Assembly: GCA_029855935.1 (NCBI GenBank)
Contig: JAGSHN010000027.1
Span: 64,001-128,000 of the forward strand
Origin: Candidatus Thorarchaeota archaeon
Lineage (GTDB): Archaea; Asgardarchaeota; Thorarchaeia; Thorarchaeales; Thorarchaeaceae
Direction of reading: 5' to 3'
DNA length: 64,000 bases
Shown: piece by piece, positions 35,863-45,960 of the stretch
Position numbering within the stretch: position 1 is the first letter of the stretch
How the letters are laid out: each line of letters opens with the position of its first letter
Position numbers and translations under genes: made by a program
The notes under the pieces: model-generated
Told to the model about the DNA's origin: nothing
Databases searched by the model: none
What the model saw: the letters and a program-made list of their open reading frames with translations, nothing else

Positions 35863-36903
35863 GTGTTCGCGATGGTGACTCCCTACAGAGTGTTATTGGT
35901 CGGAATGGGAACCATTGGAAGGAAAATTGCAGAGGCGATTATCGCACGGGACAATCTTGAGCTGATCGCAGTTGTCGACACCAATCCGGATCTTGCGGGG
36001 AAGAGAGTTGACGATGTGTTGGACCATGTTCAGACTAGTGATGCGAAGGTCTACCCAAGCATCGGAAAGGCGCTCAGACCCAAGAGGAACAGTGATGTTG
36101 ATGTTGCAATCGTCGCTACCTCTTCTGCCCTCCAAGATGTTGTTCCACTCATTGAGAGATGTCTGGAGGCCGGTGCCAACGTGATATCAATCTGCGAGGA
36201 GCTATCGTTCCCCTACGCCAAGCACGCTGATCTTGCCAAGAGGCTCGACCGCGCGGCGAAACAGGCGAAGAGGACTGTCGTCGGCACGGGCATCAACCCG
36301 GGCTATCTTATGGACACGCTCCCCATCCTTCTCTCGGCCCCCGTACGTGACCTTGAGACAATCGAGGTGACAAGGGTCATCGACTCGTCAAAGCGGAGGA
36401 CATCCTTCCAGAAGAAGATTGGAACGACAATGACAGTGAAGAGGTTCAAGGAGGCGATCTCCACGGGGGAGATCACGGGACACGTGGGTCTCTTCGAGTC
36501 GATAAGCATGATAGACAGTGCTCTCAACCTTGGACTCACAGCCATCGAAGAGCTGACGCCAGAGCCTGTCGTGGCATCGACACGCATCGAGACCGCCGTC
36601 GGGACAGTCCAGAGTGGAGAGGTGATTGGTCTCCGTAGTGTCGGTGTCGGGCGCAGAGGCGAGGATGTGGTGGTGACTCTCAACTTCCTGGCCTACGCAG
36701 GGGCCAGCCCTGAGTATGACGAGATACGCATTCGGGGTATCCCGGAGATCACCCAGAGAATTGAGGGAGGTGTCCACGGCGACATCGGTACGGTGGCGAT
36801 GGCAATCAACATGATTCCCATTGTCGTCGATGCTCGACCGGGACTGAAGACAATGAAGGATCTGCCCTGCCCCCACAACACCGAGAGAGTCATGAAACGG
36901 TGA
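35863..36903 (+). CDS. dihydrodipicolinate reductase-like / 2,4-diaminopentanoate dehydrogenase-like oxidoreductase
   Basis: GMGTIG, EEL..P, GTGINPG, GHVGL, GGVHGD. Confidence 0.8.
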   Translation: MFAMVTPYRVLLVGMGTIGRKIAEAIIARDNLELIAVVDTNPDLAGKRVDDVLDHVQTSDAKVYPSIGKALRPKRNSDVDVAIVATSSALQDVVPLIERCLEAGANVISICEELSFPYAKHADLAKRLDRAAKQAKRTVVGTGINPGYLMDTLPILLSAPVRDLETIEVTRVIDSSKRRTSFQKKIGTTMTVKRFKEAISTGEITGHVGLFESISMIDSALNLGLTAIEELTPEPVVASTRIETAVGTVQSGEVIGLRSVGVGRRGEDVVVTLNFLAYAGASPEYDEIRIRGIPEITQRIEGGVHGDIGTVAMAINMIPIVVDARPGLKTMKDLPCPHNTERVMKR

Positions 36904-36909
36904 CCTGAG

Positions 36910-38217
36910 ATGCTGAATCAGTACATCTCAAAGACCCGGAGGTCTCGAGATCTCTTTGAGAGAGCCGAGAGGGTCCTCTGCGGAGGGGTGAATCACAACA
37001 TCCGAACCTTCGGCCTGACCACTCACGGAGCGTACCCGCCATTCATGGCACGGGGAGAGGGATCTCACATCTGGGATGTTGATGGCAACGAGTACATCGA
37101 CTGGTGGATGACGCACTTCGCCAAGATACTAGGTCACGCCCATCCCTCTGTGATAGCTGCAATCAGGGAGCAGCTCGAGAACGGAGTCCATCTCGGTGCG
37201 CTGAATGAGGCGCAGGTGGAACTGGCCGAGCTGTTGCGGCGAGCGATACCACTGCTGGAGAAGATGCGATTCTGTACAACGGGCGCGGAGGCCACAATGT
37301 ATGCCACGCGACTGGCACGGCTGTACACAGGTCGCCATCTTGTTGCCAAGGCCAGAGGAGGGTGGCACGGTGGCAACGACTCGCTAGTCTACCATCTGAA
37401 GTATCCCTTCACGGACGAACCCATATTCGCGGGCCTCTCATTCGACTTCAACGACAGTGACAGTGTGACCGAGCTCTTCAGAGAGCACGGGGAGGAACTT
37501 GCTGCGGTCATTGTGGAGCCCGTCCTCGGTGCTGGTGGAGGGCTGCCACCGGAGAGAGACTTCCTAAGGCATCTGAGAGAACAGTGCGACGCTCACGGCT
37601 CTGTTCTGATATTTGATGAGATCATCACCGGCTTCAGACTGTGCTACGGCTCGGCCGGTGTCGAGCTCTTTGGCGTGAGGCCAGACCTTATGACCCTCGG
37701 AAAGATTGTCGGCGGTGGGATGCCCATTGGGATCTATGGTGGTAGAGAGGAGATAATGCGACTGGCGGAGCCCGGTGCCAAGGGCGGTAGGTGGGTTGGA
37801 GGCGGAACATTCTCCAGTCATCCGCTGTCAATGGCGGCTGGCGTTGCTGTGATTCGTGAACTTGAGAGACTGAAGAACGACTACAGGAGACTGAACACAA
37901 CTGGCGACACGTTCAGACGGAACATCAACACCTACTTCTCCGACGAGGGCATCAAGGCCTTGTCAACAGGCACGGGATCAATTGCTTTCGTAAACTGGCT
38001 GAGGCACGACATCGAGCCGCCGCTGACCGCGACCAAGCTCGGCGAGGCGGCGGACCACAAGAGACTCGACCTCTTCCAGTCTCTGTTGTTCGAGCAAGGC
38101 GTCTTCGGCTTTCACGGCCTCGGAGCAATCTCCTTCGCTCACACCAAGGAGGACATCAGTCGGACACTGGATGTTGCGAGAGAGGTAGCACCGATCGTTC
38201 AGGCCTATGATCAGTAG
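36910..38217 (+). CDS. class III PLP aminotransferase (GSA aminomutase-like)
   Basis: DVDGNEYID, GAEA, FDEIITGFR, TLGKIVGGG. Confidence 0.88.
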   Translation: MLNQYISKTRRSRDLFERAERVLCGGVNHNIRTFGLTTHGAYPPFMARGEGSHIWDVDGNEYIDWWMTHFAKILGHAHPSVIAAIREQLENGVHLGALNEAQVELAELLRRAIPLLEKMRFCTTGAEATMYATRLARLYTGRHLVAKARGGWHGGNDSLVYHLKYPFTDEPIFAGLSFDFNDSDSVTELFREHGEELAAVIVEPVLGAGGGLPPERDFLRHLREQCDAHGSVLIFDEIITGFRLCYGSAGVELFGVRPDLMTLGKIVGGGMPIGIYGGREEIMRLAEPGAKGGRWVGGGTFSSHPLSMAAGVAVIRELERLKNDYRRLNTTGDTFRRNINTYFSDEGIKALSTGTGSIAFVNWLRHDIEPPLTATKLGEAADHKRLDLFQSLLFEQGVFGFHGLGAISFAHTKEDISRTLDVAREVAPIVQAYDQ

Positions 38218-38920: not shown

Positions 38921-39907
38921 GTGATTCAGGCCATCGACCCAATGACGACTACAGTGATAGCACTCGCGGTGTTCGCCGTCCTCGTCGGAACACTGTGTTC
39001 GATGCTCGGAATTGGCGGCGGAACTGTCAACACTCCCCTGCTGATCATCGTGTTCATGCTCGGGCCGCGTGAGGCCTCCGCGACCACACTGATGGCCGCA
39101 ATCTTCATCTCCACATCCAGCAGCATCTCGTATTTCCGTCAGAACCCGCGGCCCGCGGTCTATCGAGCAGGGCTGTTTCTGGCGATGACAACAATCCCAG
39201 GGTCCTTGACTGGCGTGTGGCTGAAAGGCGTCATCACCGATGACCTACTCTTGAGATACCTCTTCGCTCTCCTCCTCTTCCCCATTGCTGTGAAGATGTT
39301 GTTCGCTCGGCGACGCAGCAGGACCGATATGGCCTCCGAGATCGGATCCTTCGACTTCAACTCTATCGGCCAGTCGCGGCTCATCGCAGCGCTGGCTGCG
39401 GCATACGGCGGCGGCGTAATGGCGGGTCTGCTTGGACTCGGTGGCGGTGTCATAGTGGTTCCTGTGCTGAGTATGATTCTCGGTCTTCCAATGCATGCAG
39501 CCGTGGCCACATCAATGTTCACCATGATGTTTACCACATCATCAGGCACGATTCTCAATCTTCAGTACGGACTCGTCAATCCGACGTTCGGCGCAGCACT
39601 CGGTACGGGAATGGTCATCGGCGGCCAGATAGGCTCAAGGCTCGCCTGTCGCGTCGATGCGGTCAGGCTGAAACAGGCGTTCGGTCTGTTGCTCGTTCTA
39701 CCTCTGATCAAGATGGCCAAGCTGGGTCAGATGTGGCTCGATCCGCAGAACGTCAATCCGGCAATGGCCCTTGTCGGAGACATCATCATCTGGTTCCTTG
39801 TGATGGTTCCGGTTGCCGCCATCAGATTTGTCCTCATTCGACGAGAGAACGGAGGAGAAATAGTTCCTGACGGAGAGAGATGCGACGAGGGAGGATTCGC
39901 ATCGTAG
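38921..39907 (+). CDS. TauE/SafE (TSUP) family transporter
   Basis: MLGIGGG and LLGLGGG repeats, AVATS, multi-TM. Confidence 0.88.
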   Translation: MIQAIDPMTTTVIALAVFAVLVGTLCSMLGIGGGTVNTPLLIIVFMLGPREASATTLMAAIFISTSSSISYFRQNPRPAVYRAGLFLAMTTIPGSLTGVWLKGVITDDLLLRYLFALLLFPIAVKMLFARRRSRTDMASEIGSFDFNSIGQSRLIAALAAAYGGGVMAGLLGLGGGVIVVPVLSMILGLPMHAAVATSMFTMMFTTSSGTILNLQYGLVNPTFGAALGTGMVIGGQIGSRLACRVDAVRLKQAFGLLLVLPLIKMAKLGQMWLDPQNVNPAMALVGDIIIWFLVMVPVAAIRFVLIRRENGGEIVPDGERCDEGGFAS

Positions 39908-40007: not shown

Positions 40008-41510
40008 TCAAAGCGTGAATCCGACGGATGTGTTTCCATCGAACTCCTGCGGCGTGTCACCACCACCGTGTGGATAGGCGGACACGGCGTAGTCGAAACA
40101 ATCCTCCATCAGAGTGTTCGGATTGCTACCGAAGTGGTCGATCAGGCCGTACTCCAAGAAGTAGTACGTCCACGCACCGTTGTGGTGCTGTGAATCGTCG
40201 TAGCCGTATCCGTTGTCAGTACAGGTCGTGGTCATGTAGACCTTGTCGGCATTGGATAGCGCCTGGATCTCAGGAATCAGGCCTCCGCTGTAACAATGGT
40301 CCACAAAGATGAAGATCTTGTCTGCGGACCACGTGCCGACTATTGCGGCCAGCTCCGTGTCATAGAGGTTGCCATCCTCTCCGTTCTCGCCACTGTTGCA
40401 GTCCCACATACAGAGGTATGAGGAACCCTGCCCGTCTCCAGACCCGTGCCCTGACGTGATGAAGGCAACCTCATCGTCGGCATCAGCGCCGGCGAGCCAG
40501 TTGAGGGCCTGCTTGACGTTGTGCTCCGTGGCGAGAGCGTAGTAGCTCGGGTAGTTTGAGGAGTGGGTGTCACCTAGGACTCGGACATAGTCGTAGTCCA
40601 TCACGTTGACTATGTAGTTGTACCAGTCCGTCGCGTCCTCATCGCAGTAGCTCAGGTCGCTGATGGCCTTGTAGTCGCTGATTCCGACTATGACCGCCCA
40701 CTTGTGAACGACGCCATCACCGCCACCACCGCCACCACCACCAGAGCTATAGGTGAGCGTGACGGTCAGGTCATATGATCCAGAGCCACTGTAGGAGCGG
40801 ACCATTATGTACCACGTACCAGCTCCGGGATTGTTATAGGTGACATCCTCGCCACCCGAGGTGTAACCCCGCCAGTCGTAGGTGCTGGTGGTGGGCTCAG
40901 CACCGAGTCGTCCGTACAGGTCGAAGTCGGCACTACCGCACGTGAGTACAGAGTGCATGCTCTCACAGTTCTCATCGACCTGGATGGTCCACATCTCACT
41001 GTCTCCAGTACCGGAGAGGGAACTGGTGACCGTCTCACCGCTGGTGAGCTCGTTCGTCCCACCGCCGCCACCGCCAGAGCCAAGTTCGTACTCGATCTGG
41101 TCAATGGCGAAACCCCAACGGGTCACGGAGTAGTCGGTCTTGAGACGGACCTTGATTGTGTCGCCATTGCTCCATGAGGTCCAACCCCCGTTGGAGTACA
41201 GCCCAGTGAGCTTGTGGAGTTGGTTCCCAGCATAGTCGTACACATACACGTAGTCGTAGTTGTTCTCTACGTCTATCTTGGTGAAGTGCACACGTATCTG
41301 GGTCGCGCCATCCTTGGTGATTGTCCACGTGTGGTCAAAGTTGTTGGAATAGGGATGATCCGATTCCAAAGCATATGACTCCACGGTCCGGGTGAGCGTC
41401 ACCGTCCTTGTTGAGTCCGGGGCAACATATGCCGCAGCTGCAGTCGCAATGGACGATGTCGCAAAAATCACCAGGAGGAAGGCAGACAGAAAGACTAGTT
41501 TCCTCTTCAT
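40008..41510 (-). CDS. secreted caspase-family (clan CD, C14/C13-like) protease with CUB-like and PPC domains
   Basis: Signal peptide; CUB-like ESDHPYSNN..W..IRVHF..E..YD..TDYSV..WGF; PPC-like ADFDLY..GTWYIMV; Gly linkers; AVIVGISDY, SGHG and DHCYSGG (His-Cys dyad). Confidence 0.85.
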   Translation of the reverse strand: MKRKLVFLSAFLLVIFATSSIATAAAAYVAPDSTRTVTLTRTVESYALESDHPYSNNFDHTWTITKDGATQIRVHFTKIDVENNYDYVYVYDYAGNQLHKLTGLYSNGGWTSWSNGDTIKVRLKTDYSVTRWGFAIDQIEYELGSGGGGGGTNELTSGETVTSSLSGTGDSEMWTIQVDENCESMHSVLTCGSADFDLYGRLGAEPTTSTYDWRGYTSGGEDVTYNNPGAGTWYIMVRSYSGSGSYDLTVTLTYSSGGGGGGGGDGVVHKWAVIVGISDYKAISDLSYCDEDATDWYNYIVNVMDYDYVRVLGDTHSSNYPSYYALATEHNVKQALNWLAGADADDEVAFITSGHGSGDGQGSSYLCMWDCNSGENGEDGNLYDTELAAIVGTWSADKIFIFVDHCYSGGLIPEIQALSNADKVYMTTTCTDNGYGYDDSQHHNGAWTYYFLEYGLIDHFGSNPNTLMEDCFDYAVSAYPHGGGDTPQEFDGNTSVGFTL

Positions 41511-41792
41511 GGAGATACCACCACGCGTTCTGGCATTTCTGCCAGGACGATGGAGTGAAACAAATGCAATGGGTCATAAATAAGTGGTGTACTTTTGTTC
41601 CAGAATTCTTTCGGTCATATGCGCTCGTCTTAGAACAAACCTGCGGTCATGGTGCACAGGCGGGTACACAAGTGTACGTGGTGTCTGGGCCGCCCAAAAG
41701 GCGAGCGGTCGAGTCGCGAGATCACTCTCTACGGCCGAATATGTCAGGGTGGGAAGGGGCCGTCGTGGCCCTCGTTCAGAAGTCCACACCCA

Positions 41793-42689
41793 TCACGTGA
41801 TCTTGCTCAGCACGACCAGTGCGACAACAACAGCGATCAGTGAGAGTATGCGGCCACCGAAGTCGAGGGCCGTGACCATGCCGCCCCCCGTCACGGTTCC
41901 GTAGGAGAGATACACTGTCAACTGGTATGTGCCTGACCCCGAGTACGCGTAGACCATTATATACCATCGCCCGCTCGGGGGAGTTGGCAGAATAAAGTCA
42001 TCATTCCCCACGTTTGTGGAACTCCAGTCGTTGGTGCCCAGAGTCGGCGCGGAGCCGAGCCGTCCATAGAGGTCGAAGTCCGCTCCCGATGGCCCTCGGA
42101 GTACCACCTCCATTCTCGCGCATCCGCTGTCAACGTCAATGTACCAAACGTCAGACTCCTCCGTCTCAAGATTGCCGGAAACAGTGTTGCCGCTGAATAG
42201 AACGTTGCCCGACACGCTAGTCGTTGTTGTTGAATTGCTGGTTTCATACTCTATCTGGTCGATGCCAAAGCCCCAGTTGGTGACAGAGCCATCAGTCTTA
42301 AGACGAACCCGAATCGATGGCCCGTCGCTCCACAGACTCCACGTGTCAGTGTAGCTGCCCACAAAGTCATTGAGTTGAGTGCCGGCATAGTCGTAGACGT
42401 AGACGTGGTCATAGGTCGACTCGACATCTATGCGGTAGAAGTGGACCCGGATTCTTACTGCACCACTCTTGGTGATGGTCCAGTTCCGATCATAGTTGTT
42501 GTCATACGGATGTGGTGACTCAAGAGAATAGCTCTCTGTCGTGGCCAAGACGGCGGTTCTCACCGACCTCTGCACTGTGTGACTGGTCGGGGGAGCCCAG
42601 ACTGGTACGGTCAGCATGATCAGAACTGCAAAGAAGAATGTCCAGCCAAACATGGCCCTGCTCTGTGCCACAGCCATCGAACCCCGCAT
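41793..42689 (-). CDS. membrane-anchored CUB-like plus PPC protein (no protease domain)
   Basis: Signal peptide, ESPHPYDNN CUB-like domain, GADFDLY PPC domain, C-terminal TM; start re-called to ATG 42689 (or 42677), about 30 nt below a TATA at 42721-42730. Confidence 0.8.
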   Translation of the reverse strand: MRGSMAVAQSRAMFGWTFFFAVLIMLTVPVWAPPTSHTVQRSVRTAVLATTESYSLESPHPYDNNYDRNWTITKSGAVRIRVHFYRIDVESTYDHVYVYDYAGTQLNDFVGSYTDTWSLWSDGPSIRVRLKTDGSVTNWGFGIDQIEYETSNSTTTTSVSGNVLFSGNTVSGNLETEESDVWYIDVDSGCARMEVVLRGPSGADFDLYGRLGSAPTLGTNDWSSTNVGNDDFILPTPPSGRWYIMVYAYSGSGTYQLTVYLSYGTVTGGGMVTALDFGGRILSLIAVVVALVVLSKIT

Positions 42690-42799
42690 CGAGTCTGGTG
42701 AGTGACTTCTCGCTTCCACGTATATAGATATTGCATACGTACGGGTCCGACCATGACAAGACAGACCGAGATTGTGTCCCGTAGGGAACAAAGGCCCAA

Positions 42800-45775
42800 T
42801 CACTTCACGGGACTCTTGTCCACCTTGGGAATCCAGATCAAGAACTCTGCACCCTGTGTGTGGTCACCAGGCACTCTGTCACGCACCGTTATCCTGCCGC
42901 CATACTTCTCGACGATCTGGCGAGAATGATGCAGGCCGAGCCCTCCGAAACGACGCGCCCGGTCGAACAGGCTCCTCTTGGCCGAGTCGGGAACGCCCGT
43001 GCCGTTGTCCGCGACACTGATGACATACCAGTCGCCATCCTCGAACACGCGCACCCAGACCTTCTTGACATCGTGCGGGTTGTGCTCCACTGCATTCATC
43101 AGGATGTTGGCAATCAGTAGCTCCAGGTACGAGTCCGCGAGGACGTCCGCCTTGTCGACCTCCCTCTCGACATAGAACTTCACGCTGGCACCACCCTGGG
43201 ACAGGCCCTTGATGCAGTTGTCGACCGCCTCAAGCAGGTCTCGTTTTTCCAGCGGGACACTGTGAAGCTGTTCCGTTGCACGGACCTCCTGAATCAGTCG
43301 GCTGACACGATTGACGGAGTCTGTCATTATCTGCAAGAAAGAGTCACGCGACGCATCATCAGTGGCATTGCGGAGCAGGTTTGCACTGCTGAGGATCACC
43401 TGCAGGTGATTGCGAATGTCATGCGAGATTATGTCAAGGTAGAGGTCTGCCTGATCACGCGCTGAGCGGACGCGCTTCTCTGCCTCCACGCGGTCGGTGA
43501 TGTCGATGAGGACGACCTGCAATGCACGGGCCCCCTCGTAGTCAACGGAACTAATGAAAGCCTCAACCCACCTGACTTTGCCGTCCGCTCCCACAAGCCT
43601 AAACTCAAGGTTACTCGGACCAGGTTCGCCCTGAAATCGCGACCGCAGTATCTCACTGACCGTTTCGCGGTCCTCGTGATAGATGAACTTTGACATCTCT
43701 TCAAGTGGAATAGAACGAAACTCATCAATCGTCACGCCGAGTAGTTCGAGCAGAGGGCGGTTCGCATACAGCAGACCCTCGGTGGACAGAACAGCCAGCC
43801 CCTGAAGACTGTTCTCTGCAAGCGACCTGTATTTCATCTCAGACCTGCGTATCGCCTGATCGCGAGCTCGCCTCTCTGTGATGTCCTGTGCGGTCCCGAG
43901 GACACCTATGATATTGCCCTCAACGTCATGCAGGGGTACCTTGTTGGTCTCAATCCACACCTCCCGTCCGTCTGCTTGGTGTTGTCTCTCAACAAGGCCA
44001 TACACACCCGCCCCGGACTCGATAACACGACGGTCTGTCGCTATGTATGACTCCGCCTCCTCAGGGAGCCAGGCAAGGTCGTGGTCAGTCTTGCCAACAA
44101 TCTCCGACGGATCTTTCACGCCTGCGACTCTTGCGAAGTTTGTGTTGCATCCCAAGTAGACGGAGTTCCGGTCCTTCCAGTAGACGTACAGTGGTATTGT
44201 CTCGAGAATGAGCTGCAACTTCTCTCGTGATTCAACTAGTTCATCCTGTGCCTCCTTCTTCTCCGTGATGTCTACGACGACCACCTGAAGAGCCTCTCTA
44301 CCTCCAAAGTCAATGTAGTTGGAGAATGCCTCCACCCATCGGACCGACCCATCCGGACGAATGAACCTGTACTGATAAGGAACGGGGAAAGGCTTGCCTG
44401 CCCTTCGCCGCTGGGCGATCTCGAGCAGGTACGGCTGGTCATCGGGATGTACCATAGACCATCCCTCCTCGCGGCTCATCGCGAGAATCTCTTCTCTGGA
44501 ACGTCCGACAATATCGCAGAACGCGGGGTTCACATAGACGTAGTGCTGATTCTGAATGATGGAGATTCCCTGTAGTGAGTGTTCGGCCAGTGCCCGGTAC
44601 TTCATCTCCGACTCCTGCAGAGCCGCCTCCATACGCTTCTTTTCCGTGATGTCATCGAACAGGCCCAGTACCTCGACCACGTTGCCGTCTTCGTCGAGCA
44701 CGGGATGCGCCTTCAGCTGACCGAACCCCCTACGACCAAACCTTGTAACATATTCGTGCTCTGTCACGACGGTCTGCTTAGACTCAACACATTTCCTCAG
44801 CGAGTCTGCTATTCCTGATTGAATCGAGTACTCGGATGTCAGGAAATTTATCTCAGCAACGTCCTCGGGCGTTCGAGCACCCAAGATCTCAAGGCCCTTC
44901 TTGTTGATGCTTATGATGTTGCCATCAGGTGTGACCACAACGATGCCAACGGGCATCTCATCAAAGAAGGTGCGGTAGCGTGCCTCCGTCGTCTGCAGCT
45001 CTCGGTGTATTCGTTTCAGGTCACTGATATCCATCACCACAGCAATTACGCCAACGAATTCTTCCTCCTGATCTGTGATGACTCGTGGCATCATTGCAGA
45101 ATGAACCCGCCTCCCGTCTGCCGTCCTGAACATGATCTCAAGCGTGACCTCTGTGCCCTCCGATGGCGGTTCGGCCATGAGCGTCTTGACCTGACCGAGC
45201 TCAGAGGGGTCTACTATCTCTAGCAAGGACTTGCCAAGCAGTTCGTCGGGGGAGTAGCCGAGCATCTCGAACAGACGGGGGTTTCCATACTTGACGCGCC
45301 AGTCAGCATCCAAGAACAACACGGCCTCATGCATGGTCTCAAGAATCGTCCTGAAACGGCGCTCGCTCCGAATCCTCTTCTCCTGCTCCAGTCGCATGCG
45401 AGTGATGTCTGTAATCACTGCGAACGAGCCGACAAATCTGTCGCCATCGAACATCGGCGTGGCGGAGACCACGGTATTGACCTTGTCACCAGTCCAGTGT
45501 ACCCAGTCGAGCGTGTACTGAGACGAGACACCCTCCTCCCTAAGATGCGAGAAACGGCGCACAACCTGAGCATTCTCCTCGTCGAGAAAGTCGAAGACAG
45601 GGCGCCCGATGATCTCACCCAGCGGATAGCCTATCAGCTCAACGAAACTATGGTTGGCGTAGGTAATCACATTCTCAGGGTCAACAACTATGAGGGCATC
45701 ATTCATCGTGTCTACAATCTCTTTGTAGGGGACAGCTGGTCTTTCATTGGCTATAGAATCGGAGTTTCGGGTCAT
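42800..45775 (-). CDS. soluble multi-PAS sensor histidine kinase
   Basis: About six PAS/PAC repeats ending DIT/DIS; H-box SHDIRNHL; N-box, DNGTG and GLGL; start re-called to ATG 45775. Confidence 0.93.
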   Translation of the reverse strand: MTRNSDSIANERPAVPYKEIVDTMNDALIVVDPENVITYANHSFVELIGYPLGEIIGRPVFDFLDEENAQVVRRFSHLREEGVSSQYTLDWVHWTGDKVNTVVSATPMFDGDRFVGSFAVITDITRMRLEQEKRIRSERRFRTILETMHEAVLFLDADWRVKYGNPRLFEMLGYSPDELLGKSLLEIVDPSELGQVKTLMAEPPSEGTEVTLEIMFRTADGRRVHSAMMPRVITDQEEEFVGVIAVVMDISDLKRIHRELQTTEARYRTFFDEMPVGIVVVTPDGNIISINKKGLEILGARTPEDVAEINFLTSEYSIQSGIADSLRKCVESKQTVVTEHEYVTRFGRRGFGQLKAHPVLDEDGNVVEVLGLFDDITEKKRMEAALQESEMKYRALAEHSLQGISIIQNQHYVYVNPAFCDIVGRSREEILAMSREEGWSMVHPDDQPYLLEIAQRRRAGKPFPVPYQYRFIRPDGSVRWVEAFSNYIDFGGREALQVVVVDITEKKEAQDELVESREKLQLILETIPLYVYWKDRNSVYLGCNTNFARVAGVKDPSEIVGKTDHDLAWLPEEAESYIATDRRVIESGAGVYGLVERQHQADGREVWIETNKVPLHDVEGNIIGVLGTAQDITERRARDQAIRRSEMKYRSLAENSLQGLAVLSTEGLLYANRPLLELLGVTIDEFRSIPLEEMSKFIYHEDRETVSEILRSRFQGEPGPSNLEFRLVGADGKVRWVEAFISSVDYEGARALQVVLIDITDRVEAEKRVRSARDQADLYLDIISHDIRNHLQVILSSANLLRNATDDASRDSFLQIMTDSVNRVSRLIQEVRATEQLHSVPLEKRDLLEAVDNCIKGLSQGGASVKFYVEREVDKADVLADSYLELLIANILMNAVEHNPHDVKKVWVRVFEDGDWYVISVADNGTGVPDSAKRSLFDRARRFGGLGLHHSRQIVEKYGGRITVRDRVPGDHTQGAEFLIWIPKVDKSPVK

Positions 45776-45960
45776 AAGAGAGTGGTCCTCCGAGGGAGGG
45801 AGTAACGCAGACAGCTCTGATATAACTGGTAATAATGCCTTTGGTCGCACTTTGATACGGCCACCAGTCTGTTGTGGACTGTGCCGATGACATTGTACGG
45901 CCAATCGTCAGAGAAATAAGTGTCAGTGCGCAGTGTATAGCCCCGGGAGGTAGCCGCGTT

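Follow-up and report, generated by a model that had tools for sequence, protein, structure and literature searches.

A predicted exported CUB-PPC caspase-family peptidase of a Thorarchaeota archaeon and its rare, membrane-anchored paralogue without a protease domain

Most discussion of caspase-family proteases concerns enzymes of death and signalling inside the cell. A 64,000-nucleotide stretch of a Candidatus Thorarchaeota genome (hereafter, the window) raises the question of what such an enzyme would do outside the cell and whether it would have a partner there. The window is part of contig 4 of a 2.97-Mb genome (G000) that is 97% complete. It holds two adjacent genes on the same strand, here called genes A and B, which share similar CUB and PPC domains; gene A ends in a protease domain and gene B in a membrane anchor (Table 1). 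An initial annotation, made without database searches, had read the two as an extracellular protease with a cognate surface receptor, decoy or tether. Our own reading, to which we give a probability of roughly 60%, is that gene A encodes an exported, Arg/Lys-directed metacaspase-type endopeptidase that acts on external proteins and that gene B encodes an accessory, lineage-restricted surface CUB-PPC paralogue.

By profile, fold and catalytic dyad, gene A belongs to peptidase family C14 of clan CD. The protein matched Pfam Peptidase_C14 (PF00656) over residues 270 to 452 with 34.3 bits (cutoff, 21.4), CUB (PF00431) over residues 45 to 136 with 33.9 bits (cutoff, 21.4) and PPC (PF04151) over residues 156 to 239 with 36.8 bits (cutoff, 25.9), while its match to the C13 family (PF01650), at 15 bits, fell under the cutoff of 22.8. 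An AlphaFold2 model was built from an alignment of 39 homologues and had a mean predicted local distance difference test score (pLDDT) of 81.8, with block means of about 71 to 97 in the catalytic domain. When the model was searched against the PDB with Foldseek, the top matches were MALT1, AtMC9, Yca1 and the Geobacter protein GSU0716, with caspase-9 and legumain ranking lower (E = 1e-10 to 1e-8 over all six). His355, in the motif SGHG, follows strand 347-353 of the model, and Cys406, in the motif DHC, follows strand 398-404 within the nucleophile motif D-H-C-Y-S-G-G. Both residues were invariant across the 39 homologues, as were Asp292 and Asp404. The intact clan CD dyad first noticed from these motifs is thus borne out by profile, structure and conservation alike.

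The acidic residues around the dyad point to the type of enzyme. HMMER aligned residues 270 to 358 of gene A to Yca1, which placed C289-D-E-D292 on the C-I-N-D of Yca1 and His355 on its SGHG. Asp404 lies two residues before the catalytic Cys, and by this position we equated it with TbMCA2 Asp211 and MALT1 Asp462. Cys92, Asp95 and Asp211 of TbMCA2 and Asp365 and Asp462 of MALT1 are the S1 residues that set basic P1 specificity (PMC4357240). By the alignment, Cys289 and Asp292 of gene A are the counterparts of TbMCA2 Cys92 and Asp95, and Asp292 is that of MALT1 Asp365. From the alignment and the position of Asp404, the acidic S1 residues of gene A appear to be of the C14B (metacaspase/orthocaspase) type, and because these metacaspase residues are conserved, gene A would be expected to cleave after Arg or Lys. 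Distant members of the family carry more classical metacaspase motifs, namely, G-I-N-D-Y, C-V-N-D-A and D-S-C-H-S-G-G.

Gene A shares with the metacaspases and orthocaspases (C14B, PF00656; Yca1 4F6O, TbMCA2 and AtMC9 8A53) the caspase/hemoglobinase fold, a dyad of His (SGHG) followed by Cys (D-x-C-x-S-G-G), a C-x-x-D motif opening helix 1 that, with an Asp placed two residues ahead of the Cys, makes up an acidic S1, and the presence of N-terminal accessory domains. Unlike them, it has a predicted Sec signal peptide in place of a cytosolic prodomain, a catalytic domain that is compact (235 residues) and free of a long p20-p10 linker, and D-H-C-Y in place of D-S/C-C-H at the nucleophile. Its CUB and PPC module also sets it apart and is unmentioned in two surveys of these enzymes (PMC6426788 and PMC3501461). 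MALT1 (4I1P and 3V4O) resembles gene A in fold, with a TM-score of up to 0.69 on the target, and its Arg-directed acidic S1 pair Asp365/Asp462 resembles Asp292/Asp404. However, MALT1 is a cytosolic, dimerisation-activated signalling protease of eukaryotes with death and Ig domains, and it is only 13 to 17% identical to gene A; nothing points to direct descent. Gingipains (C25) and clostripain (C11) are exported Arg/Lys-specific clan CD endopeptidases of anaerobes and sediment archaea; peptidases of this type carry beta-sandwich accessory or adhesin domains and degrade external protein but have a different prodomain and activation logic. They belong to the same clan as gene A and to different families; Pfam gave no indication that gene A is a C25 or C11 member (C14 at 34 bits, C13 under its cutoff).

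Export of gene A is suggested by its architecture. Sec-type signals can be read from the translations of both genes, in agreement with the first description of the locus. In gene A, the N terminus was modelled as a helix followed by a disordered stretch, and the protein has no second hydrophobic segment beyond it and no C-terminal anchor, its domains being joined by poly-Gly linkers. Export is supported by these linkers, by the extracellular-type partner domains and by the PPC domain, a type usually found in secreted proteases. The homology of the PPC domain to those of secreted proteases is clear in sequence, with E = 6e-10 for a metalloprotease domain (2LUW) and E = 5e-4 for the beta-jelly-roll of the subtilisin Tk-SP (3AFG). 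Unlike in known PPC proteases, the PPC domain of gene A precedes the catalytic domain and sometimes occurs as a tandem duplicate, and PPC domains here also occur in membrane proteins without a protease.

By profile and fold, the N-terminal domain of gene A is a true CUB domain, modelled with a pLDDT of about 80 to 96. Foldseek matched this part of the protein to the CUB domains of PCPE-1, C1r/C1s and MASP-2. Residues 41 to 143 of gene A and 48 to 150 of gene B contain no cysteine at all, so the two canonical disulfides of animal CUB domains are missing and the domain is of a cysteine-free, prokaryotic type. Acidic residues at the places where motifs would put the Ca2+-binding triad of ligand-binding CUB domains (E of D-V-E, D of Y-D-Y/H and D of K-T-D) were invariant in 27 sequences including gene B. 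The initial annotation had called CUB domains typical of extracellular protease and receptor networks in animals, but this type is not specific to animals: the nearest look-alike CUB clusters include bacterial ones, and the CUB/PPC type turned up with HMMER in 3052 representative clusters, a large number of which are giant proteins with multiple repeats.

Put together, gene A would be a Sec-exported, catalytically competent C14B-like cysteine endopeptidase that starts with a cysteine-free CUB domain, continues with a single or double PPC domain and ends in the catalytic domain of some 235 residues. It would act outside the cell on proteins or peptides, with the CUB and PPC domains (Ig domains in paralogues) as a targeting, substrate-binding or stabilising part. 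Gene B would be a separately transcribed type I membrane protein that displays CUB and PPC at the cell surface without a protease, and it would probably bind the same class of ligand as the module of gene A, as a surface capture protein, tether or competitor.

The gene A family is widespread and multi-copy in Asgard archaea, and its N-terminal modules (CUB-PPC, PPC or Ig-like) are interchangeable. A word-seeded search with gene A gave 667 relatives with source labels of Thor-, Heimdall-, Odin- and Hodarchaeales. The closest protein relatives were labelled Candidatus Thorarchaeota, which fits the Asgard origin first proposed. The 667 relatives come in forms of about 500, 610 and 700 to 800 residues with CUB, one or two PPC and Ig-like domains. 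The catalytic domain was present in 60 of 201 sampled Asgard genomes and in 31 of 59 genera, at one to five matches per genome and in open frames of very different lengths, and CUB was patchier (23 of the 201). We found two C14 genes in the genome itself, gene A and a paralogue elsewhere in the window whose C14 domain is 55% identical to the catalytic domain of gene A. Archaeal orthocaspases with an N-terminal Big_7 domain are among the architectures listed by Klemencic et al. (PMC6426788), and the paralogue has exactly this Big_7-C14 architecture. Asplund-Samuelsson et al. found prokaryotic caspase homologues that are exported or have extracellular domains (PMC3501461), so exported homologues with accessory domains were already known from the two surveys. 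Gene A is therefore a new member of an already annotated, widespread family. Our search of the literature on Asgard caspases, metacaspases and CUB proteins found nothing relevant on the gene A family.

In these archaea, the caspase fold would be found in a widespread, multi-paralogue exported family with swappable extracellular binding modules. Asgard archaea are the closest prokaryotic relatives of eukaryotes, and the specificity and substrates of their exported caspases would clarify both how they feed on or remodel external protein and which roles the caspase fold had ancestrally.

Gene B is a paralogue of the N-terminal part of gene A. The two proteins are 51% identical over 254 residues (E = 4e-77), far beyond chance, and the motifs that first suggested a shared module are present in both (ESDHPYSNN in gene A, ESPHPYDNN in gene B, and ADFDLYGRLG in each). 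Pfam found in gene B a CUB domain at residues 50 to 143 (32.2 bits), a PPC domain at residues 179 to 248 (37.0 bits) and nothing else. AlphaFold2 modelled both domains with a pLDDT of about 80 to 96, followed by a terminal helix at residues 280 to 297. This helix coincides with the C-terminal hydrophobic stretch, some 15 to 18 residues ending in SKIT, that had been proposed as the anchor. The anchor departs from the usual pattern of this genome but is conserved in an orthologue described below. Dozens of large open reading frames in G000 end in a Thr/Ser-rich stalk, often with P-G-G, followed by a helix of about 20 residues and an RRR or KRR tail (for example, C30:1711-4182, C31:55148-62413 and C16:34681-39504), which looks like the standard surface-protein anchor of the organism.

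In a word-seeded search, gene B had matched nothing but itself and proteins with a protease domain, the latter at no more than 54% identity, as if it were an orphan, and we found no relative closer than 53% among 40 genomes. An exhaustive HMMER search overturned this view. It recovered an orthologue, P0139, of 304 residues, about 50% identical over residues 18 to 297 and with the same order of signal peptide, CUB, PPC and anchor. The anchor tails of the pair, R-I-L-A-L-V-G-I-V-I-V-L-F-V-L-S-K and R-I-L-S-L-I-A-V-V-V-A-L-V-V-L-S-K, share the pattern R-I-L..L....V..L.VLSK; their start codons align, and the TATA-like box upstream is conserved between them. P0139 is encoded on two contigs, L025 (ENA) and L051 (JGI), each from a further metagenome and together representing one other organism. 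Both contigs carry the C terminus of an orthologous kinase (71 to 78% identity), P0139, a spacer of about 280 bp and a gene A homologue, the last being 76% identical over its first 112 residues in L051. Comparison of L025:1852-2382 with L051:1936-2275 showed an identical gene B orthologue and gene A homologues that differ beyond residue 93 or so: the L051 copy still resembles gene A, and the L025 copy diverges and then runs into further CUB-like repeats. This difference may reflect strain variation or a chimeric metagenome contig.

The idea of a cognate pair has weak conservation behind it. The order kinase, gene B, gene A recurs in one other organism, so that two organisms in all combine the protease with an anchored paralogue lacking the protease domain; the pairing is absent from four genomes of the same genus. 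A dedicated pair, in which the anchored CUB-PPC protein serves as the cognate receptor, tether or decoy of the enzyme in a proteolytic signalling or substrate-capture module, is possible. The two genes are adjacent on one strand and share their module at 51% identity, the gene order, the anchor and the TATA-like box of gene B are kept in the second organism, every gene B seen had a gene A homologue beside it (in two organisms only), and gene B keeps the CUB residues that do not vary among homologues. We nevertheless consider such a pair unlikely. The two genes have separate TATA-like boxes, with a conserved leader on gene A only, the PPC loop of gene B has diverged from that of gene A, and as for signalling, gene B has no cytoplasmic domain and there is no sign of a signalling output. 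A prediction of the complex (gene A residues 28 to 500 with gene B residues 33 to 270, with alignments) scored 0.25 against a mark of 0.32; run without controls, it is not evidence either way.

The distribution of gene B speaks against a dedicated pair and, together with several other points, also weighs against our own reading of the two genes. At the syntenic gene A locus, gene B was absent from all four same-genus genomes, whose gene A orthologues are 74 to 88% identical. G003 (98% complete) has the TauE-family gene, a gene A orthologue (82% identity) and the kinase with no gene between; G002 and G004 have the kinase directly upstream of gene A and no gene B; and the gene A locus of G001 lacks a separate gene B. 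A short gene with CUB and PPC only was found in none of the other 22 CUB-bearing genomes among the 201 Asgard genomes. Two complete Heimdall-type genomes contained no second PPC gene, and a contig search with the C-terminal half of gene B gave no relatives. These absences imply that any partnership of A and B is dispensable, and since gene A persists in four close relatives that lack gene B, the gene A enzyme does not need gene B. In addition, the terminal branch of gene B in a CUB-PPC tree was 1.54 substitutions per site against a median of 0.13 (1.54 to 1.76 over two such trees). The near-invariant PPC loop YDWRGYTSGGE is replaced in gene B by NDWSSTNVGNDD, and because this loop is lost, the ligand of gene B may differ from that of gene A. 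The P1 preference of gene A is based on an alignment and on residue positions relative to distant structures, and there was no RNA run among the listed public sequencing runs that hold this DNA.

The same long branch, the missing PPC loop, an anchor atypical for the genome, close relatives without the gene and, in the word-seeded search, almost no homologues of the same architecture would all fit a gene B that arose by partial duplication and is decaying or without function, its hydrophobic tail an accident of losing the protease. We find this improbable, the least likely of the alternatives considered here. The frame of 298 codons runs without a stop or frameshift despite a nonsynonymous divergence from gene A of dN = 0.44 and a saturated synonymous divergence (dS). 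An orthologue at about 50% identity keeps the architecture, anchor pattern, start codon and TATA-like box, and the CUB and PPC domains are modelled with the confidence given above. The GC content at third codon positions (0.67) matches that of neighbouring host genes. Three-frame translation of the 282-bp spacer between the genes and a tblastn comparison with five protease-bearing homologues did not find a protease remnant, and with no remnant in the spacer, a simple frameshift or truncation pseudogene was rejected. On this evidence gene B most likely functions, although it is rare and evolves fast. In two trees of CUB-PPC and one of PPC only, with or without P0139, it sat on a long branch that had no firm position, and the trees do not settle whether it came from gene A, from a CUB-PPC-X paralogue or from a PPC-PPC-TM family (both described below).

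Between the same two organisms, the CUB domain of gene B is 62% identical, against 85% for that of gene A (over the 72 residues available). Gene B evolves much faster than gene A, as proteins of conflict or recognition systems often do, and this could favour an enzyme that is not a nutritional protease and acts on cell-surface proteins, either in maturation or shedding of the cell's own or on those of neighbours or viruses in antagonism or fratricide-type death, with gene B as a self-protection decoy. The genome also encodes many large Thr-stalked surface proteins as possible substrates, and extracellular prokaryotic metacaspases have been speculatively tied to cell-surface death and fratricide roles (PMC3501461). 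We regard this as distinctly unlikely, since no defence or toxin context lies nearby, the family is vertically widespread with several paralogues per genome, like ordinary secreted hydrolases, and gene B is absent from most genomes that bear gene A. A PADLOC match reflected generic caspase-domain homology only, and a defence-system reading was rejected.

Animals offer an analogy for gene B, though not a homology of systems. There, CUB proteases occur with protease-less CUB partners, as in MASP-1/2 with MAp19 and MAp44 or BMP-1/tolloid with PCPE-1, and the truncated partner competes for or presents a common ligand. As in genes A and B, a protease and a protease-less protein share a CUB module, and PCPE-1, MASP-2 and MAp19 were among the structural matches. 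However, in animals the partner is soluble, being either a splice variant or a secreted protein of its own, whereas gene B is membrane anchored and limited to two organisms; the animal enzymes are serine or metallo proteases and gene A is a cysteine protease; and the animal CUB domains have two disulfides where those of genes A and B have no cysteine. On this analogy, gene B could be an anchored partner that tethers the gene A enzyme, presents substrate to it or competes with it, evolving rapidly as an external ligand changes, with the leader hairpin described next as a dedicated cis-regulatory RNA. Taken as a whole, we hold this combination to be rather unlikely. The pair would still provide a simple natural test of whether a protease-less paralogue can modulate a secreted protease, although its restriction to two organisms limits how far the result would generalize.

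Gene A has a conserved 5' leader, which forms a predicted hairpin directly before a GGTGG ribosome-binding-like motif (CGCGTGGTG) and the ATG. Except for this leader and the TATA-like box, the region upstream of gene A could not be aligned between species (G000 versus G003). Across six species, a freely varying stem is flanked by invariant ATCGT and CG(C/T)GTGGTG, and RNAalifold predicted 15 pairs, 5 of them with compensatory double changes. Because the stem sequence varies while its pairing is kept, an RNA structure is favoured over a protein operator. In 20 distinct upstream regions of homologues, a stem-loop was found at this same position, with a median z of -2.5 compared to shuffled sequences. 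The upstream regions that bear it belong to gene A homologues (L005 to L019, L021, L024, L025, L035, L036, L038 and L041) and include those of the CUB-PPC-X paralogue of G003 and of Heimdall-type genes. The full leader motif occurs once in the genome, and a comparison of positions 41400 to 42900 with Rfam gave nothing relevant. With the predicted transcription start at the base of the hairpin, the leader is most likely a 5'-terminal stem-loop that stabilises the mRNA or controls translation. It is thus a candidate post-transcriptional control element, and we know of almost no cis-regulatory RNAs in the archaeal group of gene A.

Sequences of the form T-C-G-C-G-T-G-G-T-G(A-T), similar to CGCGTGGTG, were also found 4 to 10 nucleotides before the start codons of several unrelated genes of G000 (C27:120978, C28:149491, C21:234869 and C20:35719). 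Since it stands before unrelated genes as well, this part of the leader is probably a general ribosome-binding context.

Among the listed public sequencing runs, one hydrothermal vent metagenome contains this DNA, and it probably comes from the source sample itself. In an independent assembly of that run, a contig covers positions 41035 to 43300 with no differences, and because it spans the junction, the adjacency of A and B is not an artefact of this assembly. Within the PPC-coding part of gene A, positions 40753 to 41064 have twice the depth of the contig and nine differences, and the contigs of the run break on either side. P0003 is a 607-residue form of the gene A protein with two near-identical PPC domains. 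From the double depth, the differences and this longer form, one PPC copy has probably been collapsed in the assembly, the true protein having 607 residues and two PPC domains.

The three genes of positions 40008 to 45904, all on the minus strand, encode a multi-PAS histidine kinase, gene B and gene A. On the other side of gene A, the order of a TauE-family gene, a 2,4-diaminopentanoate dehydrogenase gene and an aminotransferase gene is conserved in G003, so amino-acid fermentation genes flank gene A in both the window and that genome. In sediments, expression of extracellular peptidases and of genes for amino-acid catabolism is reported for Asgard archaea (bioRxiv 10.1101/858530). An extracellular nutritional role for gene A would fit these observations, but the case is circumstantial, the neighbourhood is weak evidence, and this belongs with the points listed above that count against our reading.

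Table 1. Features of the gene A and gene B locus and other genes of the window (positions are those of the window)
Feature	Position	Strand	Basis or remarks
Gene A, CUB-PPC-C14 (metacaspase/orthocaspase-like) peptidase, P0001	40008..41510	-	500 residues as assembled; open reading frame, Pfam, AlphaFold2, Foldseek
Gene A predicted signal peptide, residues 1-27	41430..41510	-	MKRK, hydrophobic core of about 20 residues, Ala-rich ATAAAA; from the translation
Gene A CUB, residues 41-143, cysteine-free	41082..41390	-	Pfam CUB 33.9 bits; Foldseek
Gene A PPC, residues 156-254	40749..41045	-	Pfam PPC 36.8 bits; PDB 2LUW E = 6e-10
Gene A caspase-fold catalytic domain, residues 268-500	40011..40709	-	Pfam Peptidase_C14 34.3 bits; Foldseek
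Gene A catalytic codons	His355, 40446-40448; Cys406, 40293-40295	-
Gene A conserved 5' leader hairpin	41519..41553	-	Six-species alignment, RNAalifold
Gene A leader helices	Inner stem, 41541-41546 paired with 41530-41534		Outer helix, ATCG with CGCGTGG
Gene A TATA-like box (TTATTTAT)	41576..41583	-	About 66 nucleotides before ATG; conserved six-species column block; putative function
Gene B, CUB-PPC paralogue without protease domain, P0002	41793..42689	-	298 residues; translation, Pfam, AlphaFold2
Gene B parts			Signal peptide 1-32, CUB 48-150, PPC 160-265, C-terminal helix 280-297
Gene B C-terminal transmembrane anchor (RILSLIAVVVALVVLSK...)	41799..41855	-	Hydrophobicity scan; AlphaFold2 helix; RILALVGIVIVLFVLSK in P0139
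Gene B TATA-like box (TATCTATATA)	42721..42730	-	About 35 nucleotides before ATG at 42689; block shared with L025/L051; putative function
B-A spacer, 282 bp	41511..41792	-	Protease-domain remnant absent
Multi-PAS histidine kinase	42800..45904	-	Pfam several PAS, HisKA, HATPase_c; upstream syntenic neighbour of gene B
TauE-family gene flanking gene A	38921-39907
2,4-Diaminopentanoate dehydrogenase and class III aminotransferase genes	35863-38217	+	Just beyond TauE-family gene; ornithine-type amino-acid fermentation
Second exported C14 paralogue, 367 residues	61833..62936	+	Signal peptide, Arg/Gly-rich stretch, Big_7, C14; Pfam C14 46.8 bits, Big_7 43.9 bits

Two further groups of proteins share parts of the module. 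In other Thor genomes, a CUB-PPC-X paralogue carries, after CUB and PPC, another C-terminal domain, roughly 200 residues long and without a Pfam match (L017:6294-7715 on contig 1 of G003, P0123 to P0126, and L020/L022 in G004). This domain carries the motifs F-G-H-G and S-S-C-D/H-S-G and may be another clan-CD-like peptidase. We did not find a CUB-PPC-X gene in G000 itself.

The second group, the PPC-PPC-TM family, is a small set of membrane proteins in which a signal peptide and a pair of PPC domains are followed by a transmembrane helix and, on the cytoplasmic side, a C-x-x-C...C-x-x-C zinc ribbon. Its members include P0219, P0254, P0209, P0245 and one on G011:C23, with loci at L048:1563-2585, L049:8001-9065, L047:9214-10236, L026 and L050. 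Like gene B, these proteins have the same outside topology, with a linker and helix directly after the PPC domain, and their membrane-proximal PPC has a gene-B-like loop D-W-S/A-S-T..G..D and the motif MVYA/FSGSG. Unlike gene B, they have a first PPC in place of the CUB domain and a cytoplasmic zinc-ribbon tail, and the PPC tree did not firmly place gene B with them. The family may be a trans-membrane signalling device. A PadR regulator gene adjoins it in two of the four contexts examined and a protease gene in none of them.

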